A stretch of DNA of 32,000 bases from Dickeya dadantii NCPPB 898. Its GTDB lineage: Bacteria; Pseudomonadota; Gammaproteobacteria; Enterobacterales; Enterobacteriaceae. How positions within the stretch are numbered: position 1 is the stretch's first letter; each line of letters opens with the position of its first letter. Positions 1 through 16,192 of the stretch are shown here, in pieces. The DNA lies in assembly GCF_000406145.1 (NCBI RefSeq), contig NZ_CM001976.1, positions 4,455,175 through 4,487,174 of the forward strand. Direction: 5' to 3'. The notes under the pieces were generated by a model. The model was not told where the DNA came from and ran no database searches. It worked only from the letters and a program-made list of their open reading frames with translations. Made by a program: the position numbers and the translations under genes.

Positions 1-49
1 GATAGTAACCCGGACAATTACCATTACCCTGATCATAGGATGTACTCAT

Positions 50-1177
50 ATGACGGAACACATTACCTCCTCAACGCCCTCCGAAGAGGTGGTCGAACGG
101 GCTGAATCCACTCCTCCGCAAAAATCGCCGCCCGCCTCCGGTGCGCCGCGCCACGGTATTGTGCTGGGCGCCATCGCTATTGTGGTTTCGCTGGCGCTGA
201 GCGGCGGCGTCTACTATTACGCCCACCAGCAGATGACGCGTCAGAGTACCGCACTGACCCAATTGCAGGATCAGTTGACTGCGCTGCAAAAGCAGCAATC
301 ACAGGCGCAGCAGCAGTGGCAACAGACTCTGGATCAGCAGGCCAAAGCCCTGAGCGCCGATGAGCAGCGATTGGCGACCCTGACCCGGCAGGCCGGTGAA
401 ATGCAGGAAAAACTGGCCACTCTCGCTAACAGCGACTCCAAAACCTGGCTGCTGGCGCAGGCTGATTTTCTGGTCAAACAGGCCGGACGCAAGCTGTGGA
501 GCGATAAAGACGTCACCACCGCCGGTGCCCTGCTCAAAAGCGCCGATGCCAGCCTGGCGGACATGAACGACCCCAGCCTGATCGACGTGCGCCGGGCCAT
601 CACCCATGATATCGGCATGCTGGCAGGCGTCAGTCAGATCGACTTCGACGGCATCATCCTTAAAGTGAATCAGTTGGCGGATCAGGTGGACAACCTGCGG
701 CTGGCCGATACCGACTCCGACGAAGCGCCGATGGAAGAAAACGACTCGACGCTGTCGGCTTCGCTGAGCGAATGGCGGCAGAACCTGAGCAAGAGCTGGC
801 ATAACTTCCTGTCGGACTTCATCACCATCCGTCGCCGCGACGACAGCGCCGAACCGCTGCTGGCGCCGAATCAGGATGTGTATCTGCGTGAAAACATCCG
901 TTCACGCCTGCTGGTCGCCGCGCAAGCGGTGCCGCGCCACCAGAACGAAACGTACCGGCAATCGCTGGAAACGGCGGCGACCTGGATACGCGCCTACTTT
1001 GACGAAAGCGATCCGACCACCAAAGCGTTTCTGGACCAGTTGGACGCGCTGAGCCAGCAGTCGGTGGCGATGGATGTACCGAATGAACTGCAAAGCCAGC
1101 CGCTGCTGGACAAACTGATGCAAACCCGGGTCCGCAACCTGCTGGCGCAGCCGTCCGCCAAACCACAGGAGGGCTGA
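50..1177 (+). CDS. hemX: HemX (membrane-anchored protein of the hemCDXY operon)
   Basis: 375-aa ORF. It has one N-terminal TM segment ([23 protein letters not shown]) followed by a Q/A/L-rich coiled-coil-like region, as in enterobacterial HemX. hemY follows after a 2-nt gap. Confidence 0.9.
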
Positions 1178-1179
1178 AC

Positions 1180-2376
1180 ATGCTGAAGGTATTTCTGCTG
1201 TTTGTGGTGCTGATCGCCGGTATCGTAGTGGGGCCGATGCTGGCAGGCCATCAGGGTTACGTGCTGATCCAGACCGACAATTACAACATTGAAACCAGCG
1301 TCACCGGGCTGGTTATCATGCTGGTGCTGTTTCTGCTGGCGTTTCTGGCGGTGGAATGGCTGCTGCGGCGGGTGTTCCGCACCGGCGCCCGCACCCGCGG
1401 CTGGTTCATCGGCCGTAAGCGCACCCGGGCGCGTCAGCAAACCAAAGCGGCGCTGTTGAAACTGACCGAAGGCGACTATCTGCAGGTGGAAAAACTGCTG
1501 ACCCGCAATGCCGATCACGCAGAGCAGCCGGTGGTGAACTACCTGTTGGCGGCGGAAGCCGCCCAGCAGCGCGGCGACGAGTTCCGTACCCGACAATATC
1601 TGGAGCGGGCGGCGGAAATCGCCGACACGAATCAGTTGCCGGTGGATATCACCCGCGTTCGCATTCAACTGGCCCGTAACGAAGACCACGCCGCTCGTCA
1701 CGGCGTAGACCGTTTGCTGGAAGTGGCGCCGCGCCACCCGGAAGTCTTGCGGCTGGCGGAACAGGCGTTCCTGCGTACCCACGCCTACAGCGCTTTGCTG
1801 GATATCCTGCCCGCCATGCGTAAAACCCGGCTGCATGACGAATCCCAGCTGGATGAATTGCAGCAGCGCGCCACCATCGGTTTGATGGATCAGGCGATGG
1901 CGGAAGGCGGCAGCGAAGGGTTGAAACAGTGGTGGAAAAATCAGCCGCGTAAAGTTCGCCAGGCGCTGCCAATGCAGGTGGCCATGGCTGAACGGCTGAT
2001 TGTGTGTGATGACCACGTCACCGCACAGGACATCATTGTAGACGGGCTGAAGCAGCAGTTTGACTACCGGCTGGTACAGCTGATCCCCCGGCTCAATGCC
2101 GGTCAGCCGGAACCGCTGGAAAAACTGTTGCGCCTGCGTCTGAAACAGCACAACGATGACGCGCTGCTGCACAGCACGCTGGGGCAGTTACTGGCGAAGC
2201 ATGGCGAATGGCAACAGGCCAGCGATGCCTTCTCCGCCGCGCTGGCGTTGCGACCGGACGCCTACGACTACGCCTGGTGCGCCGATGCCTTTGACCGGCT
2301 AAAGCGCCCCGAAGACGCGGCCCGCATGCGGCGTGACGGTTTGTTACTGACGCTGCAGCCGCCCCACGACGCCTGA
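1180..2376 (+). CDS. hemY: HemY (inner-membrane TPR-like protein of the hem operon)
   Basis: 398-aa ORF, the length I recall for E. coli HemY. It has two N-terminal hydrophobic helices and a helical-repeat C-terminal part. The ATG lies 2 nt after the hemX stop. Confidence 0.9.
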   Translation: MLKVFLLFVVLIAGIVVGPMLAGHQGYVLIQTDNYNIETSVTGLVIMLVLFLLAFLAVEWLLRRVFRTGARTRGWFIGRKRTRARQQTKAALLKLTEGDYLQVEKLLTRNADHAEQPVVNYLLAAEAAQQRGDEFRTRQYLERAAEIADTNQLPVDITRVRIQLARNEDHAARHGVDRLLEVAPRHPEVLRLAEQAFLRTHAYSALLDILPAMRKTRLHDESQLDELQQRATIGLMDQAMAEGGSEGLKQWWKNQPRKVRQALPMQVAMAERLIVCDDHVTAQDIIVDGLKQQFDYRLVQLIPRLNAGQPEPLEKLLRLRLKQHNDDALLHSTLGQLLAKHGEWQQASDAFSAALALRPDAYDYAWCADAFDRLKRPEDAARMRRDGLLLTLQPPHDA

Positions 2377-2384
2377 CCTGCCCT

Positions 2385-2408
2385 GACCGGCGCGTTCCCG
2401 CGCCGGTC
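2385..2408 (+). terminator. Candidate hemY terminator hairpin
   Basis: GACCGGCGCG-TTCC-CGCGCCGGTC is a perfect 10-bp GC stem 9 nt after the hemY stop. The tail TTCACGTCTTCC is only partly T-rich. Confidence 0.55.
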
Positions 2409-2451
2409 TTCACGTCTTCCAGATAACACCATGATTTAGCTGAATAATGGC

Positions 2452-2656
2452 AAAAAAAAACGCTTACCGACCAGCGGCAAGCGTGCAATAAAAATCAGGT
2501 CTGAAAGACAACTTTAAGGTGCCCCACTCAACGTTACGTCCAACGGCGATGAAGCAAGCTTCATCAATAATCGGACGTTAGGCACCGTAAATGGCTCTGC
2601 GTCATTCCCAGGTTTATGAAGCCGAAGCAAGCATAGAAGGTGGAATGAGCATCTAC
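2452..2656 (-). ncRNA. glmZ: GlmZ small RNA (glmS-activating sRNA, SraJ/RyiA family)
   Basis: The minus strand reads GTAGATGCTCATTCCA...GGAATGACGCAGAGCCATTTACGGTGC...AACGTTGAGTGGGGCACC...TTGTCTTTCAGACCTGATTTTT, then a terminator hairpin (ACGCTTGCCG..CGGTAAGCGT) and T9. These blocks match the E. coli GlmZ sequence as I remember it. The position, convergent with the hemY 3' end, matches E. coli synteny. Confidence 0.88.
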
Positions 2657-2667
2657 ACGCTTAATAA

Positions 2668-2683
2668 AGCATGAATGATGCCA
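2668..2683 (-). promoter_or_regulatory. Sigma54 (-24/-12) type promoter of glmZ
   Basis: The minus strand reads TGGCATCATTCATGCT, so GG and GC have the exact TGGCAC-N5-TTGCW spacing. The GC lies 13-14 nt upstream of the predicted GlmZ 5' end at 2656. Confidence 0.7.
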
Positions 2684-2803
2684 ACTTCACTAAAATCCAA
2701 ATAGAAAAATATTATTCATTGATAAATAAGGAATTAAATATAAATCGCTGCTTAATACCGGCCTAACTAACCTGCTGAAAAATCAGGCATTCCTCACCAA
2801 TAC

Positions 2804-2917
2804 TGTCGCTAATAAGAGACGATGCCAACAGCGCTATTTATATCCTTTAAAAATCAAATGTTTATATGTCTCTCTTTGGCGACAGGAAGACACCCCAACT
2901 GTCGCCGAAAAGCCACA
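2804..2917. promoter_or_regulatory. Three GlrR(QseF)-type activator boxes upstream of glmZ
   Basis: Boxes are TGTC-N10-GACG (2804-2821), TGTC-N10-GACA (2867-2884) and TGTC-N10-CACA (2900-2917). Their centres lie about 156, 219 and 252 bp upstream of the GlmZ 5' end, spaced 63 and 33 bp apart (whole helical turns). A visibly AT-rich stretch (about 2690-2800) separates them from the -24/-12 element, which would suit DNA bending. Confidence 0.6.
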
Positions 2918-2938
2918 GGTAGCGTTTAGCTTACGATT

Positions 2939-2978
2939 CAAACAAAACGGCCACGGATAACCGTGGCCGTTTTGTTTG
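2939..2978 (-). terminator. Rho-independent terminator of the accessory ABC/amidohydrolase operon (symmetric hairpin)
   Basis: CAAACAAAACGGCCACGG-ATAA-CCGTGGCCGTTTTGTTTG is a perfect 18-bp inverted repeat 20 nt after the stop at 2998. A U-rich run follows the GC core on either strand. Confidence 0.8.
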
Positions 2979-2997
2979 ATAGGGCGCTGACGGGTGA

Positions 2998-4158
2998 TCA
3001 GGCGGTCTGCGGCAGTTGTTCCAGGCTCTGCTTCGCCAACTGATACAGGTAATGCGCGGTCGGGAACAGCGCACTATCATCCACCCGGAATTTGGGGTGA
3101 TGCAGCGCGTACGGGCCGCCAGAGCCGACCATCATAAAGGTGCCCGGCAGCTTCTGCTGGTAGAACGCGAAGTCTTCGCCGATGGGGCTGGCTTCGACGC
3201 GACGCGCCTCAAACCCTTCGTCATCAGCGACCTGCAGCGCGAAGTCCACCCAGCGCGGCGTGTTCACCACCGATGGCGGTCCGGCGTGCCAGATAAATTC
3301 GATTTCCGCGCCAAAGGTGCTGGCGATGCCGGCCACAATCTGGCGGAAACGCTGTTCAATCAGGTCACGCACCGCCTGACTAAAAGTACGCACCGTTCCT
3401 TCCACATAGGCGGTGTCCGGAATCACGTTCCAGGTGCTGCCGCTGTGCACCTGGGTGATCGACACCACCGCATTATTGTCGGACGGCACGGTACGGCTAA
3501 TAATGGTCTGCACGGAGGAAATCAGCTGCCCCAGAATAATGATCGGATCATTGCCTTCGTGCGGCTTGGCGGCGTGGCAGCCTTTGGCGGCAATCTTGAT
3601 TTCGAAACGGTCCACCCCGGCGGTCAGCGCGCCGTCTTTACCGCCAATCACGCCGACCGGCAGCGTTGGGTCGTTATGAATGCCGAAAATGGCGGTCGCG
3701 CCGTCCAGCGCGCCGACGGCGATCACTTCCGGCGCGCCCAGCCCGGTTTCTTCAGCCGCCTGAAACAGAATACGCACGGTGCCTTTCAGTTCCGGCTCAA
3801 TGCGTTTAAGCAAAATCGCCGCCCCCAGCGCCGCCGAAGAATGGAAATCGTGACCGCAAGCGTGCATCACGCCGGCATTCTTCGAACTGAATTCGACGCC
3901 GGACTCTTCTTCAATCGGCAGGGCGTCGATGTCGGAACGCACCACCACCAACGGGCCGTCCTGCAGGCCACCCACTTCCGCCACCAGACCGGTTTTCAGC
4001 GGCAGATCCAGAATGCGGATCCCTTCTTTTTCCAGCACGGCGCGAATTTTCCGCGTGGTTTCAAACTCCTGATTGGACAATTCCGGATGCTGATGCAAAT
4101 CGTGCCGGAACGCCTGAATAAACTGCGCCAACGGCGCATGCTGGGCATGCTCTTTCAT
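2998..4158 (-). CDS. M20-family amidohydrolase (N-acyl-L-amino-acid deacylase, hippuricase/YxeP-like)
   Basis: 386-aa ORF with the metal-ligand context MHACGHDFH and a GIHNDP motif typical of the M20D aminoacylase/ILR1 group. A GAGGAG Shine-Dalgarno lies 9 nt upstream of the ATG. It is the last gene of the operon. Confidence 0.85.
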   Translation of the reverse strand: MKEHAQHAPLAQFIQAFRHDLHQHPELSNQEFETTRKIRAVLEKEGIRILDLPLKTGLVAEVGGLQDGPLVVVRSDIDALPIEEESGVEFSSKNAGVMHACGHDFHSSAALGAAILLKRIEPELKGTVRILFQAAEETGLGAPEVIAVGALDGATAIFGIHNDPTLPVGVIGGKDGALTAGVDRFEIKIAAKGCHAAKPHEGNDPIIILGQLISSVQTIISRTVPSDNNAVVSITQVHSGSTWNVIPDTAYVEGTVRTFSQAVRDLIEQRFRQIVAGIASTFGAEIEFIWHAGPPSVVNTPRWVDFALQVADDEGFEARRVEASPIGEDFAFYQQKLPGTFMMVGSGGPYALHHPKFRVDDSALFPTAHYLYQLAKQSLEQLPQTA

Positions 4159-4237
4159 GTAGGGTCACTCCTCTTTTTTCAGCCCTGCCTCGCAGGGCGG
4201 CCCGACGCGTCGAGCCTGCAGGTGAATACGTTATCGA

Positions 4238-4999
4238 TCAGATATCGAACTCTGATGGTTCCTGAATGTTAGTCAGCTGTCGCAGGAAGCGGCGGGTCTG
4301 CGGGTTGTCGGAGAAACTGATCACTTTCTCCGCCGGGCCTTGCTCGACAATGTGTCCATCGGCCATAAAGATCACGCGGTCCGCCACCTCTTTGGCGAAC
4401 TGCATCTCATGGGTCACAATCACCATGGTGGTGTTCTGCCCCGCCAGTTTCTGGATAACCTGCAACACTTCATGCACGCGCTCCGGGTCAAGCGCCGAGG
4501 TCGGCTCATCAAACAGGATCGCTTTAGGGTCCACCGCCAGCGCACGGGCGATGCTGACGCGCTGCTGTTGGCCGCCGGACAGCGTCACCGGATACTGGTG
4601 CGCCTGCGGCAGCAGCCCCACCAGCTCCAGCAGCGACAGCCCAATCTCGTCCGCCTGCTTTTTCGGCATTTTCTTCACCACAATCAGGGCTTCGGTGATG
4701 TTTTCCAGCGCGGTCTTGTTCTTGAACAGGTTGTAGTTCTGGAACACCATCGCCGTCTGGCGTCTGAGCGCATACTCTTCCTTGCCGGTATAACGGCGAG
4801 TATCCAGCGACTGCTCGCCGATGGTAATGGTGCCGGATTCCGGCTTCTCCAGCAGATTCAGGCAACGCAACAGGGTGGATTTGCCCGAGCCGGACGGCCC
4901 GATGATCGCCACCACCTCGCCCTGGGCGATATCCAGACTGATGTTGTTCAGCACCACCTGGTCGCCAAAACGTTTGGTCAGGTTTTTTACGCTAATCAT
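4238..4999 (-). CDS. Polar amino-acid ABC transporter ATP-binding protein
   Basis: 253 aa with Walker A GPSGSGKST, ABC signature LSGGQQQRVSIARAL and Walker B ILFDEPTSALD. An AAGGAG SD overlaps the end of the permease gene. Confidence 0.93.
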   Translation of the reverse strand: MISVKNLTKRFGDQVVLNNISLDIAQGEVVAIIGPSGSGKSTLLRCLNLLEKPESGTITIGEQSLDTRRYTGKEEYALRRQTAMVFQNYNLFKNKTALENITEALIVVKKMPKKQADEIGLSLLELVGLLPQAHQYPVTLSGGQQQRVSIARALAVDPKAILFDEPTSALDPERVHEVLQVIQKLAGQNTTMVIVTHEMQFAKEVADRVIFMADGHIVEQGPAEKVISFSDNPQTRRFLRQLTNIQEPSEFDI

Positions 5000-5008
5000 G
5001 TCGGCTCC

Positions 5009-5680
5009 TTAACGCTGCCGTGAGTGGCTGAGTTTCTTCTCCAGCTGAGACTGCAGCCAGGAGTAAACCACAATGAGCATCCAGTAAATCAGCCCTACCA
5101 CCAGGAAAGTTTCGAAGAAGCGCAGCGATTCGGCGGCGATCATCTTGCCTTCGGCAAACAGTTCCGACACCCCGAGCGCAAAAGCCACCGAGGTATCTTT
5201 AATCAGCGAAATAAAGGTGTTGCCGGTGGCAGGCAGCGCATTGAGCATCGCCTGCGGCAGCACGATGCGGCGATAAATCTGCGCCTTGTTCATCCCTACC
5301 GACAGACCGGCTTCGGTTTGCCCGAAATCCACCGACGCCAGCGCCGCCCGGAAAATCTCCGCCATATAAGCCGAGTTCTTCAGGCTAAAGCCGATAATCG
5401 CCGCCGTCATGGCGGACAGGCCATTCAGTGACGGGAACAGCTGGGGCAGGCCGAAATAGATGATGAACAATTGCACCAGCGACGGGATACCGCGAAACAG
5501 CGAGATATAGAGCTCAACCAGTTTCGCCACCACAACGAAGCGGCTCTCGCGAACCAGCGCCAGCACCAGTCCCAGCACGATGGCAAACAGCATCGATACC
5601 ACCGCCAGCAACAGCGTGGTGGGTAAGTACATCAACACCTGGGGAAAAACTTTCAGCAGGTAGGAAAGATCGATATTCAT
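5009..5680 (-). CDS. Polar amino-acid ABC transporter permease (HisM/TcyL-like)
   Basis: 223-aa hydrophobic ORF with an EAA-loop-like segment (QTEAGLSVGMNKAQIYRRIVLPQA). It lies 9 nt upstream of the ATPase gene. Confidence 0.9.
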   Translation of the reverse strand: MNIDLSYLLKVFPQVLMYLPTTLLLAVVSMLFAIVLGLVLALVRESRFVVVAKLVELYISLFRGIPSLVQLFIIYFGLPQLFPSLNGLSAMTAAIIGFSLKNSAYMAEIFRAALASVDFGQTEAGLSVGMNKAQIYRRIVLPQAMLNALPATGNTFISLIKDTSVAFALGVSELFAEGKMIAAESLRFFETFLVVGLIYWMLIVVYSWLQSQLEKKLSHSRQR

Positions 5681-5698
5681 GGGTCATACCATTAACAC

Positions 5699-5728
5699 TG
5701 ACGCCAGCCGCGAATCTGGCTGGCGTCA
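5699..5728 (-). other. Intercistronic stem-loop between the binding-protein and permease genes
   Basis: TGACGCCAGCC-N8-GGCTGGCGTCA is a perfect 11-bp stem in the 72-nt gap after the binding-protein stop. No U-tract follows, so it is not a classical terminator. Confidence 0.5.
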
Positions 5729-5752
5729 CAGGAGTTGAGCGAGCAGGCAGGG

Positions 5753-6532
5753 TTATTTGCCCGCCGTGATGTCCTCGCCGAAATATTTAACAGACAGGGC
5801 TTTCAGTCGGCCATCACTGCGCATTTTGTTCAGTTCGTCATCAAACTTCTTGCGCAGCTCGTCGCCTTTCTGATCTTTATGGAACGGGAAGCCCACCTGC
5901 TCCACCACCAGCGGCTCGCCCACCAGCTTGAACGGCAGGTTGCGCTTATTGATTTCCGCCAGCAGGATCGGGCGGGAGTTGATGTAACCTTCCACACGTT
6001 TCGCCAACGCATCGCTCATGGCGCCGTCGCGGGTTTCGTAAGTGCGAATGTTGACGCTGCCGTCGGCAAAGGCTTTTTTCAGGTTGTTGACGTGGTTGGA
6101 ACCCAGCACGCCCGCCACGGTTTTGCCTTTCAGATCATCCAGCGTATTGATGTTGGCGTTGTCTTTATGCGTAACGATCTGACTGCCGTAATAGCTGTAC
6201 GGCTGGGAGAAGCTGTATTTCTCCTGACGCGCTGGGGTAATCGCCACCACGTTGGCGATGGTGTCCAGCTTGCTGGCTTCCAGTTGCCCCATCAGGCCGC
6301 TGAAATCCGCCGTCACCCACTCGACTTTGTAGTTCAAATCTTTAGCGATGGTTTCCGCCACTTCCACGTCAAAACCAACCAGCTTGTTGTCCTGTTTGAA
6401 CGAACTCGGGTAGCTCTGCCCGGTGGCGCCGATACGCAGTACCTTCTCGCCGCTGTTCTGAGAATCGCAACCCGCCGCCAGAATGGCCGCAGACAAGGCT
6501 AATACAGGGAGGATAATTTTTTTCATAGTCAT
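5753..6532 (-). CDS. Amino-acid ABC transporter substrate-binding lipoprotein (family 3 SBP, cystine/FliY-like)
   Basis: 259 aa. The signal peptide has the lipobox LAAGC (MTMKKIILPVLALSAAILAAGC). The body resembles polar amino-acid binding proteins. An AAGAGG SD lies 9 nt upstream. Confidence 0.9.
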   Translation of the reverse strand: MTMKKIILPVLALSAAILAAGCDSQNSGEKVLRIGATGQSYPSSFKQDNKLVGFDVEVAETIAKDLNYKVEWVTADFSGLMGQLEASKLDTIANVVAITPARQEKYSFSQPYSYYGSQIVTHKDNANINTLDDLKGKTVAGVLGSNHVNNLKKAFADGSVNIRTYETRDGAMSDALAKRVEGYINSRPILLAEINKRNLPFKLVGEPLVVEQVGFPFHKDQKGDELRKKFDDELNKMRSDGRLKALSVKYFGEDITAGK

Positions 6533-6545
6533 CGAATAACGCCTC

Positions 6546-7070
6546 TTAGGGGTGTTTCTTTTCCCAGTGATGATAAAGGTCCTGATCCAGGACTTTTCGC
6601 ATGTAAATCGTGAGGTGTCCTTTCCCTAAATCCGCCTGGCCGACTTCCTGAAAGCCATATTTCCGGTACATTTCCAGCAACCAGGGATGCTGTTTGGCCG
6701 TGCCCAGCGTCACGGCGGGTGCTTTTAACTGGTCTTTCAGCACCGCCTGCTCCAGCCAGTCCAGCATCTGTTTGCCCAGCCCCTGTTGTTTGAAGTCCGG
6801 ATGGGTGGCGAACCAACCGATGTGCGGTAATCCGTACGGGCCGGGATTCGGCCCCCACGGATAGCGAAGGGTGACAGACGCGGCCAGACGCCCGTCTTTC
6901 TCCATCACATACACGCCGTTGCTGCGCAGATGGCGGCGCACCATATCGATGTCCGCATAGGCGGCGTCAAACTTGATGCCCAGTTCGCGCACCGGCGCAT
7001 AAGCGGCCAGCGCCAGCGCCAAAAATGCCTCATCGTCCGCAGACGTGGCCTGACGAAATACGGTACTCAT
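6546..7070 (-). CDS. GNAT-family N-acetyltransferase
   Basis: 174 aa with the acetyl-CoA motif A QQGLGKQML. A GGGAGAGG SD sits between the lyase stop (7082) and this ATG. Confidence 0.85.
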   Translation of the reverse strand: MSTVFRQATSADDEAFLALALAAYAPVRELGIKFDAAYADIDMVRRHLRSNGVYVMEKDGRLAASVTLRYPWGPNPGPYGLPHIGWFATHPDFKQQGLGKQMLDWLEQAVLKDQLKAPAVTLGTAKQHPWLLEMYRKYGFQEVGQADLGKGHLTIYMRKVLDQDLYHHWEKKHP

Positions 7071-7081
7071 GGCCTCTCCCG

Positions 7082-8446
7082 TTACTCGGCCAGCAGACCG
7101 GTGCCATCCGCGTACCGGATCACCTCATCAACTTTCTGCGGCGCGCTGCCGACATAGTTCGCCGGATCCAGCCAGGCATCCAGCGTATCCGCCGTCAGGT
7201 GCTGCGACAGCACCGGATGCTCCAGCAGCAACGCCTTGAACTCGCGGTTCTGTTCGAACGCCGCCATCGAGCATTCATACACCAGGTGATGTGCCGTCTG
7301 TTTGCCGAGCAGTTTGCCGATTTCGAACATCACTTTTTCCGACAGCAGCAGGCCGTTTTGCAAATCCAGATTGGCGCGCATCTGCTTTTCGTTCACCGAC
7401 ATACCACGCAGGATGCCAAGCGCGTTCTGCAACTGCGCCGACAGATAGATGTTGATTTCCGGCAGCGCGATCCACTCCGCGCGCCAGCTCATGGCGTCAC
7501 GTTCGTGTTCGACTTTCATTGATTCGTGGATCAGGGCGGCGCTCTTAAACAGCGGCGCCGTCAGGCTGGCAAGCCCTTCCAGCGCGGCCGGATTGCGTTT
7601 GTGCGGCATGGTAGTAGAGCCGATCTTCCCTTCGGAGAACGGCTCTTCGATTTCGTTGATTTCGGTGCGCATCAGGTTGTACAGCTCGTTGCCGATTTTA
7701 CCGAGCGTACCGCTGATCAGCACCGCCACCGACGCGTATTCCGAGAAACGGTCGCGGGCGGACTGCCAGCCGATATTTGGGGTATTCAAACCCAGACGGG
7801 TCAGGGTATGGCGTTCGATTTCCGGCCCCAGCTCGCCAAAAGAGGCATAGGTGCCGATAGCGCCGTTGATGTTACCTACCAGCACACGCTCACGGATTTC
7901 ATTCAGGCGTTGCAGGTGACGCACAAACTCGTCCAGCCATACCGCCAGCTTGAAACCAAAGGTGGTCGGCAACGCCTGCATGCCGTGGGTACGGCCGGTC
8001 ATCAGCGTATGCTGGTGTTTCTTCGCCAGTCGTTTCAGTTCGATAGCCACCAGACGGGTGTCGCGCACCACGATGTCGAACGCCTGACGCAGCTGTAATA
8101 CCGTGGCGGTATCCACCACATCCTGCGTGGTCACGCCATAATGGATGTACTCGCCGGCTTCGCCGCACTGCCTCTGGATAGCGGCAATGGTCGGCATCAG
8201 AGAATGCTTCATGCGCACCGCATCCTGAGCGATCTCTTCAATATTCAGTGCGCTGGCGTTGGCGTGGGAAGCAATAGTGCTGGCCGCGTCCTGCGGGATG
8301 ACACCCAGATCGCCTTCTGCCAGCGCTAACGCGATTTCCACGTCAACCTGGCGGGTCAGGCGATTCTGCTCTGACCATACGGCGCGCATTTCTGGTGTGC
8401 CAAAGTTATTTCCAATAAGAAGAAAATCAATCAGATGTGATGCCAT
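7082..8446 (-). CDS. Adenylosuccinate-lyase-family (aspartase/fumarase superfamily) lyase, probably not housekeeping PurB
   Basis: 454 aa. It carries the fumarate-lyase signature GSTTMPHKRNP and the conserved HYGVTTQDVVDT and MTGRTHGMQALPTTFG blocks. Its architecture resembles Bacillus-type PurB/PcaB rather than enterobacterial PurB. It is the first gene of the six-gene operon. Confidence 0.85.
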   Translation of the reverse strand: MASHLIDFLLIGNNFGTPEMRAVWSEQNRLTRQVDVEIALALAEGDLGVIPQDAASTIASHANASALNIEEIAQDAVRMKHSLMPTIAAIQRQCGEAGEYIHYGVTTQDVVDTATVLQLRQAFDIVVRDTRLVAIELKRLAKKHQHTLMTGRTHGMQALPTTFGFKLAVWLDEFVRHLQRLNEIRERVLVGNINGAIGTYASFGELGPEIERHTLTRLGLNTPNIGWQSARDRFSEYASVAVLISGTLGKIGNELYNLMRTEINEIEEPFSEGKIGSTTMPHKRNPAALEGLASLTAPLFKSAALIHESMKVEHERDAMSWRAEWIALPEINIYLSAQLQNALGILRGMSVNEKQMRANLDLQNGLLLSEKVMFEIGKLLGKQTAHHLVYECSMAAFEQNREFKALLLEHPVLSQHLTADTLDAWLDPANYVGSAPQKVDEVIRYADGTGLLAE

Positions 8447-8465
8447 AACTCACTCGTTTACATTG

Positions 8466-8494
8466 TAATAATGGGGGAAAGAGAGGCGGGTCAA
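8466..8494 (-). promoter_or_regulatory. Candidate sigma70 promoter of the lyase operon
   Basis: The minus strand has TTGACC (8494-8489), a 17-nt spacer and TTATTA (8471-8466), about 20 nt upstream of the lyase ATG. The -10 element is weak and there is no other support. Confidence 0.3.
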
Positions 8495-8885
8495 GACGAC
8501 GCTGTTGTTTGTTGGCGACTATATCACCGGCGATATTCCCGCCTATATACCCGATCGATATAAGATATTCTTTATTGTTTTATGATTTCGTTGGCAATTA
8601 TTTTCCTGAAAACTATGTAATCAGTCTAACTCCTGATATGCCGTTTGCGATGGCCTGCACCGAATGCGTGCGTCCCCATTACGCCATCTTCGCCGGTAAA
8701 TCAGGATATGGTCATCGCCCCGGCTGGAAGCGCCGGAAGTAAAAGGATTATTTTTCAATCGATTAAACTTAAAGGACTCACCCCGCACTATCCGTTTTCG
8801 GCAATTCTGTCCCTGCCCACGCCAGAGGCGGCGTACTGGCTCAGGAATTGCTTGAATTCATGGGGTTTACTGGCTGGAGGCCAAC

Positions 8886-9866
8886 ATGGAATCTGTCGTT
8901 TTTTCCAGACCGGCAAATGCATCCGCGTCGTTAAGTCATCTGCGCTCATCCAATATTGAAGAGCACGCTGCCGGCATGACCGGCTGGTCATTGCAGTACA
9001 ATCAACTGACACCGGGGAAATTTTCCGGTCGGTTGACGGTCCTGGAGCTGGAGGGCATTCAGTTCGTCCGGGATCGCGTCAATCTGGCGTTATTCAAAAG
9101 CGGCCAGGCCAGAAAAGAGCTGCTGTTCACTTTTCCTCTGCATGCTCCCTGCGCCGATTTTTACTGCGCTGGGCACCAAATCAACCGCCACAGCCTGCTG
9201 GTGGCGCCATCCGCTTCGCTGCCGGATCTGCGCGCGCCGGAACACATTGATTTGTTGGCCATCAGCGTGGACGCAGCCTGCTTTACCACCCTGTTCGACG
9301 ACGCAGATGACCGGGCGTTGAATACGCCGCAGGTATTCCCGCTTAATGACCCTGACAACCTGACCCGCTGGCAAATGCTAAGCGACAGCCTTGACGAAGA
9401 AAGCCGGCGCAACGCGACACTGCTGGACTTCACGGCTATCCGTAAAGGGCTGCGCGATACGCTGTTGATTTCCCTGTCGGATATGGTGGGGCATTCGCAG
9501 GCGCTGAGGCTAACCGGCAGCGCCAAAAAGCGCATCGTGGACCGGGCGCAGGAGTATATGCTGACCCACTGCGAAAACCCGCCCTCGATTCTGGAGCTGT
9601 GCAAACACGCCGGCGCCAGCCGCCGCAAACTTCAGTATTGTTTCCAGGAAACGCTGGGCATCAACCCGGTAAGTTATCTGCGCGTGCTGCGCCTCAATGG
9701 AGTACATCGTGACCTGCTAAAGGGCGCACCTTCGGTGCAAGATGTCGCCTACGGCTGGGGATTCTGGCATCTTAGCCGCTTCGCCAACGACTACCGCCGA
9801 CTGTTTGGCGAACCGCCCTCCGCCACGCTGGCCCGTAGCCGTCACAACTGTGCTAATTTCGGCTAA
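8886..9866 (+). CDS. AraC-family transcriptional regulator (EutR/FeaR-like architecture)
   Basis: 326 aa. The C-terminal dual HTH is typical of AraC/XylS, and the ending WGFWHLSRFANDYRRLFGEPPSATL resembles EutR-type regulators. A GGAGG SD lies 6 nt upstream. Confidence 0.88.
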   Translation: MESVVFSRPANASASLSHLRSSNIEEHAAGMTGWSLQYNQLTPGKFSGRLTVLELEGIQFVRDRVNLALFKSGQARKELLFTFPLHAPCADFYCAGHQINRHSLLVAPSASLPDLRAPEHIDLLAISVDAACFTTLFDDADDRALNTPQVFPLNDPDNLTRWQMLSDSLDEESRRNATLLDFTAIRKGLRDTLLISLSDMVGHSQALRLTGSAKKRIVDRAQEYMLTHCENPPSILELCKHAGASRRKLQYCFQETLGINPVSYLRVLRLNGVHRDLLKGAPSVQDVAYGWGFWHLSRFANDYRRLFGEPPSATLARSRHNCANFG

Positions 9867-9922
9867 CATTGTTTCATCTTCATTACCTACGCTGACCAAC
9901 AACAAATACAGCGAAAAGGAAT

Positions 9923-10867
9923 ATGAAGATGAATTTTCTCAGCAATATCTCGTCATTTATTCGCAATTTATTAATATTTTCGACACTTTCGACAATAATG
10001 ACCGGTGTGGCTCAGGCGGCTGAAAACGGCACCCCCACCACGGCCGCCGGCGTGTATGATTTCGGCACCGGTTTCCTGCCGCTCACCACGGATTTCGGCA
10101 CCTTCGGCTCCCGTATCGCGTTCTATACCGCGCACACCAACCGTGACAACAACGGCAACACGCTCAACGCCCCCTTTTCATTGCAGGTACTATCGATGAG
10201 TCTGGCCTGGATGAAAATGACCGACCAGACGCTACTCGGCGGCCGCTATGGTTTCGGCCTGATCCAGCCGTTCTTCAAAATGGATATCGACATGACGGTG
10301 CCTACGCCGGCAGGCGGGCTGACGCTGCGCGACAACGTATTCCGCGCAGCGGACCTACAAGTCATACCGTTGATTCTCGGCTGGACGCCCGCCCCCAATC
10401 TTGCCATCAATACCCAGTTCCAGATTCAGGCGCCAACCGGCGACTATGACCGCAACCGTCTGGTTTCTCCGGGGCTAAACCACTGGGTTTTCTCTCCCAT
10501 CATCAACGCCACCTATATTACGTCCAGTGGGTTCGAGGTTTCCTCCAGCCTGGAGGTGGATGTCAACACGCAAAATCATGCCACCGATTACCGCAACGGC
10601 GTCGAATACCGCTACGAATATGCGCTGGGGCAACATATCGGTGCCTGGACAGTCGGCGTCGGCGGTTATTACTACAACCAGTTCAGCGACGACAGCAGCC
10701 CGACGCTGACACAGGGTATCCGCTCACGGACCTTCGCCTATGGCCCGGCGGTCAGCTATTTCACCCCCAAAGGTCCGGCAATTTGGGTACACGCCTATAA
10801 GGAAAACTATTCCCGCAACCGCAGCGAAGGCTACACCCTCGCCTTTCGCATCGCACAAAGCTTCTGA
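9923..10867 (+). CDS. Outer-membrane beta-barrel channel (MetA-pathway/phenol-degradation-type transporter family)
   Basis: 314 aa. The signal peptide ends AQA|AE. The mature part has alternating, aromatic-rich beta-strand character, with the motif PTGDYDRNRLVSPGLNHWVFSP and a C-terminal Phe (AQSF). The family assignment is from memory. Confidence 0.75.
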   Translation: MKMNFLSNISSFIRNLLIFSTLSTIMTGVAQAAENGTPTTAAGVYDFGTGFLPLTTDFGTFGSRIAFYTAHTNRDNNGNTLNAPFSLQVLSMSLAWMKMTDQTLLGGRYGFGLIQPFFKMDIDMTVPTPAGGLTLRDNVFRAADLQVIPLILGWTPAPNLAINTQFQIQAPTGDYDRNRLVSPGLNHWVFSPIINATYITSSGFEVSSSLEVDVNTQNHATDYRNGVEYRYEYALGQHIGAWTVGVGGYYYNQFSDDSSPTLTQGIRSRTFAYGPAVSYFTPKGPAIWVHAYKENYSRNRSEGYTLAFRIAQSF

Positions 10868-10880
10868 CGGAGACGCCATC

Positions 10881-12104
10881 ATGCAGTCAATACTGACTAC
10901 CCCGGCCGAAGGACGAATTCCGCGCGCCAGCCGCGAAGGGCTAATACTGATCCTCGGCGGCAGCCTGACCATCATGGGTTCGGTGATGATCGCTGCGGTG
11001 ATGCCGAAGATCGACGCCGAGTTCGGCCCGCGCACACCGGCCGCCGACGTGCTGGTTCCATTGGCTATCACCGGCCCGGCGCTGGCGATGGCGCTGTTTT
11101 CCCCGCTGGTCGGCTGGCTGGCCGACCGTTTCGGCCGCAAAAATTTGCTGATTCTGGCTACTGTGCTGTACGCCGTCACCGGTATGCTGCCGGCATTACT
11201 GGACGACCTCGGCAGCATCGTACTGAGCCGTCTGGTATTCGGTTGCGCTGAAGCCGCCATCATGACCTGTTGCACCACATTGATTGCCGATTACTGGCAC
11301 GGCCAGGAGCGAGGGCGCTTCGTCAATCTACAGGTGGTATCCATCGGGATTGTCGGTGCGTTGTTCTTTGTCATCGGCGGAGCACTCGGCGAGCACAGCT
11401 GGCGCCTGCCTTTTTATCTGTATCTGCTGCCGCTGTTGCTGGTGCCCGCCATGATCGGCGTGCTGTGGGAACCTCAGGTGAAACCGCGCGCCAGACAAAA
11501 ACAACCGGAGGCCGGTCAGCCGACGGTGTCCGGTACCCTGCTGGCCAACTACCTGCTGGTGTCTGGCGGTATGGTGCTGGCGTTTGTGGTGCCGGTGCAA
11601 ACGCCGGCGCTGCTCGTGCAGAAAGGTATCACTTCCAGCACGCTGATCGGGCTGTCCGCCGGACTCGGCCTGCTGGCATCACTTGTCGGTTCGCTGCTGT
11701 GGCCCTGGTTTCGCCATCGTGTGGGGATCGCGGGCGTTAATACTTTACTGCTCACGCTGGAAGGAGTCGGCTTATGGCTGCTGGTGCATGCTGGAGATTA
11801 CCCACAAGTACTGCTGGCGGTGTCCGTGCACGGTATCGGCGTCGGTATGCTGGTCCCCAATACGATGCTGCCGGTCATGAATGCGTTATCCGAGCGGCAT
11901 CGGGGTAAAGGCCTCGGCGTATTTACCGGTTGTCTGTATATCGGGCAATTCATCAGCCCATTGGTTGTCGCCGTCATAGCGAATGTTGCGCACAACATCC
12001 AGGGATCGATCCAATTATTGTCTGTCGCCAGTCTGGCAGGCGCGCTGGCATGGCTGTTCACCGGTCTGAAACGCCAATCCGCCCAGATCGCCAAAGACAA
12101 ATAA
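10881..12104 (+). CDS. MFS transporter
   Basis: I prefer the ATG at 10881, with a GGAG SD 13 nt after the OMP stop, over the track start at 10740, which overlaps the OMP gene. It has about 12 hydrophobic segments and the MFS motif A GWLADRFGRK. Confidence 0.88.
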   Translation: MQSILTTPAEGRIPRASREGLILILGGSLTIMGSVMIAAVMPKIDAEFGPRTPAADVLVPLAITGPALAMALFSPLVGWLADRFGRKNLLILATVLYAVTGMLPALLDDLGSIVLSRLVFGCAEAAIMTCCTTLIADYWHGQERGRFVNLQVVSIGIVGALFFVIGGALGEHSWRLPFYLYLLPLLLVPAMIGVLWEPQVKPRARQKQPEAGQPTVSGTLLANYLLVSGGMVLAFVVPVQTPALLVQKGITSSTLIGLSAGLGLLASLVGSLLWPWFRHRVGIAGVNTLLLTLEGVGLWLLVHAGDYPQVLLAVSVHGIGVGMLVPNTMLPVMNALSERHRGKGLGVFTGCLYIGQFISPLVVAVIANVAHNIQGSIQLLSVASLAGALAWLFTGLKRQSAQIAKDK

Positions 12105-12156
12105 CAGCTGATTATAAAAACCAATTAAAAGAGTCAGATACATAAGGAGGCGTTAC

Positions 12157-13611
12157 GTGAAACACATCCATCAGTTACTGGACACACAGGATGGCGTCGG
12201 GCTGGCCGGTTTGGTGACATGCGGCGAAGTCAAGCCTGCGGAACTGGTTGAAGCCGTGATTGAACGTCTGGAACAAGTCAACCCCAGCCTCAATGCGGTG
12301 GCCGAACCGCTTTACGACAGCGCCCGACACGCCGCCCGCACGATGGAGATCGCTCAGGGCGGCGCGCTGGCAGGCGTTCCTACGCTGGTCAAAGACCTGT
12401 TTACCGCGGTGAAAGAAGCAAGAATGACCAACGGTTCGCTGGCACCGGGCGAAACATATCCCGGACTCGACGATGAAATGATGCGGCGCTATCGCAAAGC
12501 GGGCATCCTGATTGTCGGTACATCTACGTCGCCGGAGTTTGGTTCTTCCTACACCACCGAATCCACCCGCTTCGGCGCCACCCGTAACCCGTGGAATACG
12601 CAACACAGCGCCGGAGGCTCCAGCGGCGGCGCTGGTGCGCTGGTAGCGGCTCGCGTGGTGCCGTTCGCCCACGGCAATGACGGCGGCGGTTCACTGCGGG
12701 TGCCGGCATCCTGCTGCGGCGTCTTCGGGCTGAAACCGACCCGGGGGCGAATGCCAAGCGGGCCGCTGGCAGGCGAAGGCTGGGCAGGGATGGGCGCACC
12801 CCATGCAGTGACGCTCTCGGTACGCGACAGCGCTGCGCTGCTGGATATCGCGTCAGGGGCCGACGCAGGCGCGCCTTACGCCGCGCCATACCAAAGCGAA
12901 CCTTTCATGGCGGCGCTGTCACGCCCTGCCCGCACACTGCGTATCGCGCTGGTCGAACATCTCTCCCCCTGGGTTACCAGCGAACAAGCGCTAAGCGCCG
13001 TCCGGCACACCGCCAGGCTGTGCGAACGCCTGGGCCACCAGGTCGATGTGGCGACGCTCCCGGTGACGGCGGAAAAATTCTTCAGCGATGCCTTTACCAT
13101 TATCAGCGTCAACACGCAGGAATACGTCGATCTGCTCGGCCATATGCGGGGAGCGCCGGTCAGGCCGGAAGAACTGGAGCCCAGAACTCGGGTCATGTTA
13201 CGTGAACGCGGCCGTCAGTCTGGCGTCGAATACGTGGCGGCGGTTAACGCCATGCATGCGCTAGGCCGACAGTTTGCCGGATTCATGCAGGATTATGATC
13301 TGATCCTGACGCCGACGCTGACTCGTGAACCGACGCCGATCGGCACACTGGATGCGTTTGACGATCGGCTCACCGTGGACGATATCATTGAAGGCTTCCA
13401 CCGTTATTGCCCGTTTACCGCGCTATTCAACGCCACCGGACAACCGGCGATGTCAGTGCCGCTTTACTGGACGCCGGGGGGCCTGCCGATCGGCTCTCAT
13501 TTCGCCGCCCGCTTTGGCGACGAAAACACGCTGCTGGCGCTGGCGGCACAGCTGGAGCAGGCGCAACCCTGGGCTGGCCGGGTGCCGCCGGTCAATGCGT
13601 TGTCAACATAA
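12157..13611 (+). CDS. Amidase-signature (AS) family amidase
   Basis: 484 aa with a GTG start 6 nt after a strong TAAGGAGG SD. The amidase signature GGSSGGAGALVAARVVPFAHGNDGGGSLRVPAS is present, as are Ser-cisSer-Lys triad candidates (VKDL Lys, GGSS, GGSLR). Confidence 0.9.
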   Translation: MKHIHQLLDTQDGVGLAGLVTCGEVKPAELVEAVIERLEQVNPSLNAVAEPLYDSARHAARTMEIAQGGALAGVPTLVKDLFTAVKEARMTNGSLAPGETYPGLDDEMMRRYRKAGILIVGTSTSPEFGSSYTTESTRFGATRNPWNTQHSAGGSSGGAGALVAARVVPFAHGNDGGGSLRVPASCCGVFGLKPTRGRMPSGPLAGEGWAGMGAPHAVTLSVRDSAALLDIASGADAGAPYAAPYQSEPFMAALSRPARTLRIALVEHLSPWVTSEQALSAVRHTARLCERLGHQVDVATLPVTAEKFFSDAFTIISVNTQEYVDLLGHMRGAPVRPEELEPRTRVMLRERGRQSGVEYVAAVNAMHALGRQFAGFMQDYDLILTPTLTREPTPIGTLDAFDDRLTVDDIIEGFHRYCPFTALFNATGQPAMSVPLYWTPGGLPIGSHFAARFGDENTLLALAAQLEQAQPWAGRVPPVNALST

Positions 13612-13655
13612 CGCCACGTCAAAAGCGCGTTCGGCTGACTGAGGCTTACTGTTAT

Positions 13656-13683
13656 AAAAAAGACCGCCGGAGCGGTCTTTTTT
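13656..13683. terminator. Bidirectional rho-independent terminator between the amidase and NTF2-like genes
   Basis: AAAAAAGACCGC-CGGA-GCGGTCTTTTTT is a 6-bp GC stem flanked by A6 and T6. It lies between two convergent stops. Confidence 0.8.
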
Positions 13684-13714
13684 ATACACTGCGAACGCCA
13701 CCGCATTCGCATAA

Positions 13715-14050
13715 TTACGCAAAATAGAACCATGCCGTCGCAATCAATCCGTCTTTGACTTCAAACACCGCGATGCTTTCGATCGGTTCAGGTTCTATGC
13801 CGTAAATCTTTTCATGATCAAAAACATGGTTACCCAGCACCGTGCGGGACACCAGCTCGGCTCGCAGCGCCGGGTTATTGAACCGGTGGTCGCGATAGAA
13901 GGTTTCCAGCGCGGCTTTTCCCTCCATGGACGAGTTTTCGGATGGCATGCGGTAAGCCCGGAAGTCGTCGTGGAAACAGGCGACAAAAGCGGTCAGGTCA
14001 TGGGCGTTGTAGGCGGCAAACTGTTTTTCAACCGGATCGATGATTGACAT
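13715..14050 (-). CDS. NTF2/SnoaL-like small protein of unknown function
   Basis: The ORF track gives 13715..14062 (115 aa). I favour the ATG at 14050 because the first codons, ATGGAGAGTGCT, form a GGAGAG SD for it. Its size and alpha+beta cone-type sequence (DLTAFVACFHDDF...) suggest the NTF2-like superfamily. Confidence 0.6.
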   Translation of the reverse strand: MSIIDPVEKQFAAYNAHDLTAFVACFHDDFRAYRMPSENSSMEGKAALETFYRDHRFNNPALRAELVSRTVLGNHVFDHEKIYGIEPEPIESIAVFEVKDGLIATAWFYFA

Positions 14051-14147
14051 AGCACTCTCCATTTAAATGCAATAATCATGAATAAAAATTCAATTCGACG
14101 TAATACACCAGTCAGCGGTGGAAAGCAAATCCGGCGGGAAAAACCAT

Positions 14148-14180
14148 AAAAAAAACGGCAGCCCATTTGGGCTGCCGTTT
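14148..14180 (-). terminator. Rho-independent terminator of the tRNA operon
   Basis: The minus strand reads AAACGGCAGCCC-AAAT-GGGCTGCCGT followed by T8, starting 14 nt after the tRNA-Pro 3' end. Confidence 0.85.
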
Positions 14181-14193
14181 CTTAAGAATAGGA

Positions 14194-14270
14194 TGGTCGG
14201 CGAGAGAGGATTCGAACCTCCGACCCACTGGTCCCAAACCAGTTGCGCTACCAAGCTGCGCTACTCGCCG
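14194..14270 (-). tRNA. proM: tRNA-Pro (anticodon UGG)
   Basis: 77 nt. The reverse complement reads CGGCGAGTAGCGCAGCTTGGTAGCGCAACTGGTTTGGGACCAGTGGGTCGGAGGTTCGAATCCTCTCTCGCCGACCA, identical to E. coli proM as I recall it, and includes the encoded CCA. Confidence 0.95.
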
Positions 14271-14310
14271 ATCCCGATTTAGAACACGTACATTACTGCT
14301 GTTGTTTGTG

Positions 14311-14396
14311 TGGTGCGAAGAGAGGGACTTGAACCCTCACGTCCGAAGGACACTAACACCTGAAGCTAGCGCGTCTACCAATTCCGCCACCTTCGC
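14311..14396 (-). tRNA. leuT: tRNA-Leu (anticodon CAG)
   Basis: 86 nt. The reverse complement starts GCGAAGGTGGCGGAATTGGTAGACGCGCTAGCTTCAGGTGTTAGTGTCC. It has a long variable arm, a TTCAAGTCCC T-arm and an encoded CCA. Confidence 0.93.
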
Positions 14397-14416
14397 CTGT
14401 CACAAACTTTAAAATT

Positions 14417-14493
14417 TGGGGTGGCTAATGGGACTCGAACCCACGACAACTGGAATCACAATCCAGGGCTCTACCAACTGAGCTATAGCCACC
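14417..14493 (-). tRNA. hisR: tRNA-His (anticodon GUG)
   Basis: 77 nt. The reverse complement reads GGTGGCTATAGCTCAGTTGGTAGAGCCCTGGATTGTGATTCCAGTTGTCGTGGGTTCGAGTCCCATTAGCCACCCCA, including the extra 5' G typical of tRNA-His. Confidence 0.95.
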
Positions 14494-14574
14494 ATATACC
14501 ACTGCTTTACTACGTATTCCAGTACTCAACTTACGGGGTAATAAGTACCTCCGCAGCTCCCGCACTCAATTTAA

Positions 14575-14651
<77 letters not shown>

Positions 14652-14672
14652 ATAGCGCCGTTGCGGGTGGGG

Positions 14673-14701
14673 ATAGTACGGATTTAATATGGGCCTGTCC
14701 A
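14673..14701 (-). promoter_or_regulatory. Candidate sigma70 promoter of the argX-hisR-leuT-proM operon
   Basis: The minus strand has TGGACA, a 17-nt spacer and TACTAT, followed by the GC-rich discriminator CCCCACCCGC typical of stringently controlled stable-RNA promoters. An A-tract (GAAAAAGC) lies just upstream. The -10 element ends 21 nt upstream of the tRNA-Arg 5' end. Confidence 0.5.
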
Positions 14702-14797
14702 GTGCTTTTTCACAGAAATGATGCGTTTGCTTATGCTTTGCTCATTTGAGCTCAAAACCCGCTTCAATCCACCGTCACCACCCGCCGTTAGCCGCGA

Positions 14798-16192
14798 TTA
14801 CTCGGCTTCCGTTTGCATTTCCGGCTGTTTTTTACCGAGCCCCAGCACAACGTAAAACAAGCTGACCGCGGCCAGGAAAATACCGCCGACCACCAGCGAC
14901 ATACGCGTGTCCTCATTGATGTACATCCCGACCAGCACGCAGAGCAGAAACGCCATCGTCAGGTAGTTCACCCACGGGAACAGGATCGACTTGAACGGAT
15001 GGCCAGCGAGCGCCGACTGATGCTGCTGACGGAAACGCAACTGGCTTATCAGCACCACAAACCAGGGAATCATCCCCGGCAGCACGCTGGCGCTGTACAC
15101 GTACACGAACACTTTTTCCGGATTGGGGATAAGGTAATTCAGCGCCGAACCGGCCACCAGGCACAGGATGGACACCATCACCCCAATAGCCGGCACGCCG
15201 CCCGCCGTCACCCGGCCCAGCGCCGCCGGCAACTGACGGTTGTTGGCCAGCGAATAGAGCATACGCCCGCAGCTGTACATGCCGCTATTGCAACCGGACA
15301 ACGCCGCCGTCAGCACCACGAAGTTGATGATGCCTGCCGCAGCGGTGATACCGATTTTGGCGAAGGTCAGCACAAACGGGCTGCCGGACGTGCCGATCTC
15401 ATTCCACGGGAAAATGGTCACAATCACGAAAATGGCGCCGACATAGAAAATCAGGATACGCCACAGGATATTGTTGATCGCCCGCTTCAGCGTCACCTGC
15501 GGGTTGCGGGCTTCACCAGCGGTAATGCCGACCAGTTCCACCCCCTGATAGGAGGCCACCACCAGACAGAGCGCAAACAGCAGCCCTTTCCAGCCGCCCG
15601 CCAGGAAACCGCCATGCTCGGTCAGGTTAACAAAACCGGTGGCTTGGCCGTGGTTGCCGATGCCGAAGAAAATGATGCCGACGCCCACCACAATCATCAC
15701 CACAATGGTGGTGATCTTGATCATCGAGAACCAGAACTCGATTTCACCATACAGCCGCACCGCCGCCAGATTGGCCGCCGCCACCAGCGCCACGGCGCCG
15801 ATCGCCGGTATCCACTGCGGCAAGGTCGGGAACCAGTACTGCACATACACGCCGATGGCGGTAATTTCCGAAATGCCGACCGCCATCCACATAAACCAAT
15901 ACCCCCACGCCGTGAGATAGCCGAAGAACGGACTCAGGTAATTGTGGGCGTAAACCGCGAACGAACCGGTCACCGGTTCCAAAAACAGCATTTCCCCCAT
16001 CGACCGCATGATGAAGAACACAAAAATGCCTGCCACGATATAGGCCAGCAGCACGGACGGCCCGGCCCATTTCAGGGCGCTGGCCGCCCCCATGAACAAG
16101 CCCACGCCGATGGTGCCGCCCAGCGCGATAAGCTCGATATGTCGCGCTTCCAGCCCACGGTGGAGCTTGTCTTGTTTTTCTATATTTACCAT
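14798..16192 (-). CDS. yifK: Amino-acid permease YifK (APC family)
   Basis: 464 aa and near-colinear with E. coli YifK as recalled ([27 protein letters not shown]...). It sits in the conserved position between wecG and the tRNA operon. Confidence 0.93.

Follow-up and report, generated by a model that had tools for sequence, protein, structure and literature searches.

The closest described relatives of the cluster examined here, six minus-strand genes in a 32,000-nucleotide stretch of Dickeya dadantii NCPPB 898 (contig NZ_CM001976.1; the whole stretch is hereafter called the window), are the yxe loci for breakdown of S-(2-succino)cysteine (2SC). Hillmann, Goethel, Erickson and Niehaus (J Biol Chem 2022) surveyed such loci in about 2000 genomes and found a lyase class I gene, which was named 2SL, in 27 of 102 yxe loci, with 2SL and YxeK inversely distributed over them (PMC9706529). 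The 2SL genes of D. dadantii DSM 18020 (E0SKP1) and Enterococcus italicus were cloned, and both enabled a B. subtilis ΔyxeK mutant to grow with 2SC as sulfur source (PMC9706529). Purified Dickeya 2SL converted N-acetyl-2SC (2SNAC) to fumarate and N-acetylcysteine with a Km of 1.2 mM and a kcat/Km of 0.29 mM-1 s-1; it favoured 2SNAC over free 2SC about 60-fold, and the reaction was reversible and promiscuous toward small thiols (PMC9706529). In 2025 the same laboratory characterised B. subtilis ScmP (YxeP) in vitro as a specific, metal-dependent N-acetylcysteine deacetylase (PMC12757645). We found no later literature on the Dickeya 2SL locus itself.

We interpret the six genes as the Dickeya lyase-type 2SC breakdown operon, that is, a Bacillus yxe/scm-type operon in its 2SL variant, and give this reading a probability of roughly 0.93. 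The strongest evidence is the lyase, which is identical at 452 of 454 residues to UniProt E0SKP1 of D. dadantii 3937, the protein characterised by Hillmann et al. (PMC9706529). Given this identity, the locus is the D. dadantii 2SL operon that has been published, here in a second strain; it is already known and not new. A preliminary description of the DNA, made from the sequence alone, had cautioned that a lyase variant of the pathway might have been reported already, possibly from Dickeya, and this suspicion was correct. The two substitutions, Ala here and Thr in strain 3937 at positions 241 and 424, are not expected to cause a functional difference. The lyase is the public D. dadantii protein WP_038912156.1, which falls in the same 90% cluster as E0SKP1, and the UniRef name of E0SKP1 is N-acetyl-S-(2-succino)cysteine lyase. 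Positions 1-17447 of the window are colinear with the strain 3937 chromosome (CP002038.1) at 98.2% nucleotide identity, and the six cluster proteins are 99.6-100% identical to their counterparts there, the GNAT and M20 proteins being identical to ADN00443.1 and ADN00439.1, respectively.

Gene content and the Bacillus counterpart

The preliminary description had reported six minus-strand genes separated by 9-79 nt, colinear with Bacillus yxeL-M-N-O-P and headed by a lyase in the slot of the oxygenase. Our analysis bears this out. The list of open reading frames (ORFs) and the Pfam assignments agree on the six genes, whose coordinates were exact (Table 1); the Pfam E-values of the six proteins span 1e-11 to 1e-44, and the spacers, read from the lyase gene to the M20 gene, measure 11, 13, 72, 9 and 79 nt. 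For the Bacillus side of the comparison, the B. tequilensis operon (locus L003) was used, fetched via the YxeP sequence printed in the 1YSJ alignment. It served as a stand-in for B. subtilis, which was absent among the 80 loci listed and to whose YxeP its own is 96% identical. The ORFs of this operon have the expected sizes and the order yxeK-L-M-N-O-P-Q.

All five partners of the lyase were matched by BLASTP essentially from end to end and in unchanged order: GNAT to YxeL (52%; 51.5% over 165 aa), the binding protein to YxeM (53%; 52.7% before rounding), the permease to YxeN (58%), the ATPase to YxeO (63%) and M20 to YxeP (51%). Moreover, the best match of the M20 protein in the PDB is B. subtilis YxeP (1YSJ; E = 2.7e-119, 401 bits, against 208 for the next entry); the MHACGHDFH motif of that protein is kept, and the amidohydrolase model TIGR01891 is hit above its cutoff with 356 bits. 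The GNAT protein has no solved-structure relative detectable by sequence. The first gene of the cluster, a Lyase_1/ADSL_C protein, has no counterpart in the B. tequilensis operon, and tblastn with the B. tequilensis YxeK and YxeQ queries gave no match across the 32-kb window. Homologues of YxeL, YxeMNO and YxeP lie adjacent on one strand with an orthologue of the characterised 2SL, and yxeK is missing from the locus, so that the lyase is a replacement and not an addition. The flavin mononucleotide (FMN) monooxygenase that acts as C-S cleaver in YxeK-type operons is not found here.

The three transporter proteins have cystine-importer models as their closest NCBIfam matches, all below the cutoff: a cystine-binding protein model for the binding protein (149 bits, cutoff 312), a cystine permease model for the permease (203, cutoff 300) and TcyN for the ATPase (318, cutoff 406). 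The equivalog cutoffs for cystine ATP-binding cassette (ABC) importers (TcyJLN/FliY-YecSC) are missed by all three components, and the scores fit a predicted importer of a cysteine derivative that would be distinct from the cystine system. The binding protein had been called a lipoprotein, in agreement with the lipobox MTMKKIILPVLALSAAILAAGC/D at its N-terminus. In this motif (LAAGC/D) Asp occupies position +2, and xGC/D recurs in Dickeya, Pectobacterium, Brenneria, Acerihabitans and Gilliamella. Under the Lol rules of E. coli, Asp at +2 causes retention in the inner membrane, and the binding protein is therefore predicted to be anchored there. Inner-membrane lipoprotein anchoring is unusual among Gram-negative amino-acid binding proteins; it would fit a common origin with the Firmicute lipoprotein YxeM.

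Together, the six proteins would form a salvage route. The lipoprotein-anchored binding protein, the permease and the ATPase would import 2SC, a stable adduct of fumarate and cysteine; the GNAT would N-acetylate it to 2SNAC; 2SL would split this by beta-elimination of the succino group into fumarate and N-acetylcysteine; and the M20 amidohydrolase would deacetylate the latter to cysteine. As a net effect, sulfur and cysteine would be recovered from a damaged metabolite with no need for O2. This sequence of import, N-acetylation, elimination and deacetylation had been proposed beforehand and matches the published route of the 2SL variant (PMC9706529). The lyase step has been shown experimentally for a protein that differs at 2 of 454 residues (PMC9706529). 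Acetylation and deacetylation have been shown for the Bacillus homologues only. For the Dickeya GNAT and M20 proteins we infer them, and we likewise infer the imported substrate, co-transcription of the genes, their regulation and the phenotype that the operon confers on Dickeya.

Table 1. Positions of the cluster genes, of their candidate expression signals and of further features in the window
Feature	Position	Strand	Size and remarks
Lyase 2SL (N-acetyl-S-(2-succino)cysteine lyase, fumarate-lyase/ADSL superfamily)	7082-8446	-	454 aa; Pfam Lyase_1 2e-44 and ADSL_C 5.5e-20
GNAT acetyltransferase, YxeL/ScmL (2SC N-acetyltransferase) homologue	6546-7070	-	174 aa; Pfam Acetyltransf_1/7/10
Substrate-binding lipoprotein, YxeM homologue	5753-6532	-	259 aa; SBP_bac_3 4.5e-35
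ABC permease, YxeN homologue	5009-5680	-	223 aa; BPD_transp_1 7e-25
ABC ATPase, YxeO homologue	4238-4999	-	253 aa; ABC_tran 1.5e-36
M20 amidohydrolase, YxeP/ScmP (N-acetylcysteine deacetylase) homologue	2998-4158	-	386 aa; Peptidase_M20 2e-41 and M20_dimer
Intercistronic spacer between binding protein and permease genes, with hairpin	5681-5752	-	72 nt
Intercistronic spacer between ATPase and M20 genes, with hairpins	4159-4237	-	79 nt
Intrinsic terminator of the operon	2939-2978	-	19-bp perfect stem AAACAAAACGGCCACGG/CCGTGGCCGTTTTGTTT, then T-run
Conserved block 5' of the lyase gene, putative promoter and regulator site	8518-8567	-	Invariant alignment columns
Housekeeping features	14194-14651 (-), 14798-16192 (-), 27718-28977 (-), 29696-29784 (-), 29845-31131 (+)		

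Family and substrate of the lyase

The lyase carries the signature of the fumarate-lyase superfamily, G-S-x-x-M-x-x-K-x-N, as GSTTMPHKRN at about residues 276-285 in the alignment. Among NCBIfam models it scored 486 bits with the adenylosuccinate lyase (ADSL) subfamily PRK08937, 452 with XcbD, 400 with 3-carboxymuconate cycloisomerase (CMLE) and 366 with purB, and its relatives in the PDB include Tad1, 3C8T, CMLE and ADSL. NCBIfam holds no model for 2SL, and a PDB search found no solved 2SL structure. Nearly all public records label the protein adenylosuccinate lyase. The NCBI label is explained by the absence of a 2SL model together with a score above the cutoff of the purB model TIGR00928 (365.9 against 326.2 bits).

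That score and the near-universal name are also what would speak for an ordinary adenylosuccinate lyase, a PurB paralogue lying by accident beside an amino-acid ABC transporter. We consider the likelihood of this to be close to nil, since the E. coli-type PurB model NF006764 gave only 99.5 bits against a cutoff of 446, the linkage to GNAT, transporter and M20 genes is kept in several genera, and S-succino lyase activity has been measured for a protein 99.6% identical to this one (PMC9706529). Adenylosuccinate was apparently not among the substrates tested in that work (PMC9706529), so that the enzyme might also have ADSL activity. The practical value of the locus lies here, in correcting the annotation "adenylosuccinate lyase".

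We saw no evidence in the sequence that contradicts a 2SC operon. Several points nonetheless weigh against our interpretation. The efficiency of Dickeya 2SL is modest, at about 290 M-1 s-1 with a Km near 1 mM, and it acts promiscuously on small thiols (PMC9706529); on these grounds 2SNAC may not be its sole or best physiological substrate. The activities of the Dickeya GNAT, transporter and M20 proteins are predicted from homology, the literature searched yielded no phenotype of a Dickeya mutant, and the hairpins in the 72- and 79-nt spacers leave a single uniform transcript unproven.

The first of these points leads to an alternative in which the true substrate in Pectobacteriaceae would be another amino acid with an S-substituent (or an N-succino group), such as a plant thioether, with cleavage of 2SC and 2SNAC as a side activity. 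Besides the low kcat/Km and millimolar Km for 2SNAC and the action of 2SL on several small thiol adducts (PMC9706529), two similarities could be taken to favour it: the transporter proteins score highest with cystine-transporter models, though below the cutoffs, and XcbD, a C-S-bond enzyme of bacterial coenzyme M synthesis, ranks second among the NCBIfam models matched by the lyase (452 bits, cutoff 600). We regard this alternative as very unlikely, however, because each of the five partners is homologous over its full length (51-63% identity) to a protein of a 2SC operon, and we know of no substrate for 2SL that is better than 2SNAC. Furthermore, B. subtilis ΔyxeK grows again on 2SC once supplied with the lyase, whose distribution across yxe loci is the inverse of that of YxeK (PMC9706529).

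Signals of expression and genomic surroundings

The preliminary description had placed Shine-Dalgarno sites over the preceding stop codons, which held in part. The overlap is present at the junctions between the GNAT and binding protein genes (TAAGAGG) and between the permease and ATPase genes (TAAGGAG), and is absent from the other three. At the junction of lyase and GNAT genes, the Shine-Dalgarno sequence GGGAGAGG begins one base past the stop codon; the M20 gene has GAGGAG 9 nt 5' of its ATG, within the 79-nt spacer; and no clear site was seen in the spacer upstream of the permease gene. The other regulatory claim, that the sole strong terminator stands at the distal end of the cluster, proved sound. 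The stretch 2930-2997, which contains this terminator, has a folding free energy (dG) of -34.7 kcal/mol, and the stem is followed by the run TTTTGTTT.

Both long spacers contain GC-rich hairpins. In the 72-nt spacer a 10-bp hairpin, GACGCCAGCC...GGCTGGCGTC, has a dG of -26.5 kcal/mol (z = -2.3 against shuffled sequences), and the 79-nt spacer holds two adjacent hairpins, followed by the M20 Shine-Dalgarno sequence. A U-tract is absent from both spacers, and the internal hairpins were rejected as terminators for this reason. A hairpin follows the binding-protein gene at the equivalent position in D. lacustris, Pectobacterium, Brenneria and Acerihabitans with a stem sequence that differs in each; in Dickeya, Pectobacterium and Brenneria it lies just 5' of the conserved TAATGGTAT...ATG of the permease gene, and the Acerihabitans hairpin is likewise placed. 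The retention of position, with a stem sequence varying by genus, suggests a structural role, which could be to stabilise the upstream binding-protein message. The GCCCTG...CAGGGC motif of the 79-nt spacer also occurs in Pectobacterium and D. lacustris. The hairpin after the binding-protein gene may be an element of mRNA stability or of stoichiometry.

The same hairpins raise the possibility that the six genes do not form one transcription unit and that the two long spacers split their expression, for example with M20 under a promoter of its own. The Gilliamella locus, which lacks the M20 gene, would agree with this in that it shows the M20 module to be separable. Several observations run counter to a split. 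Neither spacer has a U-tract, and past the M20 gene stands the one terminator of the coding strand that combines a long GC-rich stem with a U-tract. A scan found a single minus-strand promoter-like site inside the cluster, at 8374-8403, and this lies within the lyase coding sequence. In addition, hairpins after binding-protein genes commonly set subunit stoichiometry within one operon. Separate transcription is therefore unlikely in our view, and we keep to a single operon as the working model.

Upstream of the lyase gene, an alignment of the 5' regions revealed a block with columns invariant across four genera. It comprises an extended -10-like element, TGATATAGT (TGnTATAGT, 8518-8526), together with GGTATA (8546-8551) and TAT.ATC (8558-8567), and its TATA-containing repeats recur about one helical turn apart. 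On these features it looks like a putative promoter with a regulator site. A simple scan of 8447-8885 found no canonical sigma-70 promoter. A TTGACC...CATTAT pair near the lyase ATG was dismissed as a promoter, as its spacing is non-standard and it is confined to Dickeya, the other genera being without it.

One speculative extension is that in soft-rot Pectobacteriaceae the operon would serve as a regulated scavenger of succinated or S-alkylated thiols from macerated, fumarate-rich plant tissue, controlled via the block at 8518-8567 by a sulfur-responsive regulator, and that the best substrate of the lyase would be something other than 2SNAC. What points to it is the modest published kinetics together with the conserved non-coding block, and we hold it to be decidedly unlikely.

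Divergently from the operon, a plus-strand cluster at 8886-13611 encodes an AraC/EutR-like regulator (8886-9866), a Phenol_MetA_deg outer-membrane channel, a major facilitator superfamily (MFS) transporter and an amidase, and lies between the operon and a tRNA cluster. The MFS ORF listed at 10740-12104 probably starts later, the strain 3937 annotation giving 407 aa. The AraC/EutR-like gene was considered as regulator of the operon and rejected, since D. lacustris, Brenneria and Pectobacterium have the operon but lack this gene and its three plus-strand neighbours at this site. The AraC cluster looks like a lineage-specific insertion in D. dadantii and is not part of the 2SC system.

On the other side, directly downstream of the operon terminator, lies the gene for the small RNA GlmZ (2454-2656, minus strand; Rfam RF00083, 160 bits) with its own terminator at 2460-2484. 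The only sigma-54-like match of the window (TGGCAY-N6-TGCW) is at 2668-2683, 12 nt upstream of the 5' end of glmZ, and the only TGTC-N10-GACA match, a GlrR-type site, is at 2867-2884. Elsewhere, the window carries enterobacterial housekeeping genes, comprising hemX and hemY (50-2376), tRNA-Pro/Leu/His/Arg, thrP/yifK, the enterobacterial common antigen (ECA, wec) cluster, rho and rhlB, and also the trxA 5'-untranslated-region thermometer (RF02773, 86 bits).

Distribution and relation to known systems

The same six genes occur in unchanged order in D. lacustris, Pectobacterium aroidearum, Brenneria rubrifaciens and Acerihabitans arboris, with 61-97% identity to the proteins of the window. This recurrence of the order across genera shows that the arrangement exceeds chance. 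In Dickeya and Brenneria the operon occupies the same site, with hemY on one side and the yifK/ECA cluster on the other; in Pectobacterium it also borders on the yifK/ECA cluster, but its other neighbour is a second ABC-transporter cluster, not hemY. In Gilliamella (locus L082) the lyase, GNAT and transporter genes are present, the M20 gene is missing at the locus, and a convergent YxeQ-like gene stands at 13138-14493 (42% identity). Acerihabitans arboris (locus L086, 3434-4741 and 12496-13842) has, near 2SL, a YxeK homologue 46% identical to that of B. tequilensis, and appears to be one of the rare genomes with both cleavage enzymes; it also has a YxeQ-like gene of the MmgE/PrpD type and another gene for a binding protein.

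Megablast gave no match of the locus to complete E. coli genomes; among plasmids it gave only partial matches, on Pantoea megaplasmids at 75-78% identity. The idea that the locus is here an element of E. coli or carried on a plasmid was rejected on these results. Two of these megaplasmids, NZ_OY970451.1 and NZ_CP083808.1, have the genes for lyase, GNAT and transporter, with a nucleotide identity of about 78%, so that the module also occurs on large plasmids in Erwiniaceae.

Of the described systems, the 2SL locus of D. dadantii 3937 is the nearest, as it comes from the same species, has the same six genes and occupies the same chromosomal site, bounded by hemY/glmZ and by the tRNA-Pro-Leu-His-Arg cluster; it differs in being from another strain and in the two lyase substitutions. 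The ADSL/3-carboxymuconate cycloisomerase/XcbD branch has the fold and the signature motif in common with the lyase, but the substrate of 2SL is an S-succino thioether and not an N-succino compound or a carboxymuconate. The 2SL of Enterococcus italicus (E6LDH5) likewise stands in place of YxeK, prefers 2SNAC and acts reversibly. Compared with Dickeya 2SL in the published kinetics, this Firmicute enzyme has about 5-fold higher efficiency, and its Km for fumarate is about 14-fold lower (PMC9706529). Reversibility makes 2SL a useful catalyst for the synthesis of S-succino compounds.

The Bacillus yxeKLMNOPQ (scm) operon has the L-M-N-O-P order and the logic of acetylation, cleavage and deacetylation in common with the Dickeya cluster. 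The cleaving enzyme sets the two apart. In Bacillus it is the FMN monooxygenase YxeK, which needs O2 and yields oxaloacetate, whereas in Dickeya it is a lyase, which works without O2 and yields fumarate. Succination damages metabolites and has been linked with diabetes and with fumarate hydratase-deficient cancers; for its reversal, two or more chemically unrelated routes have evolved in bacteria.

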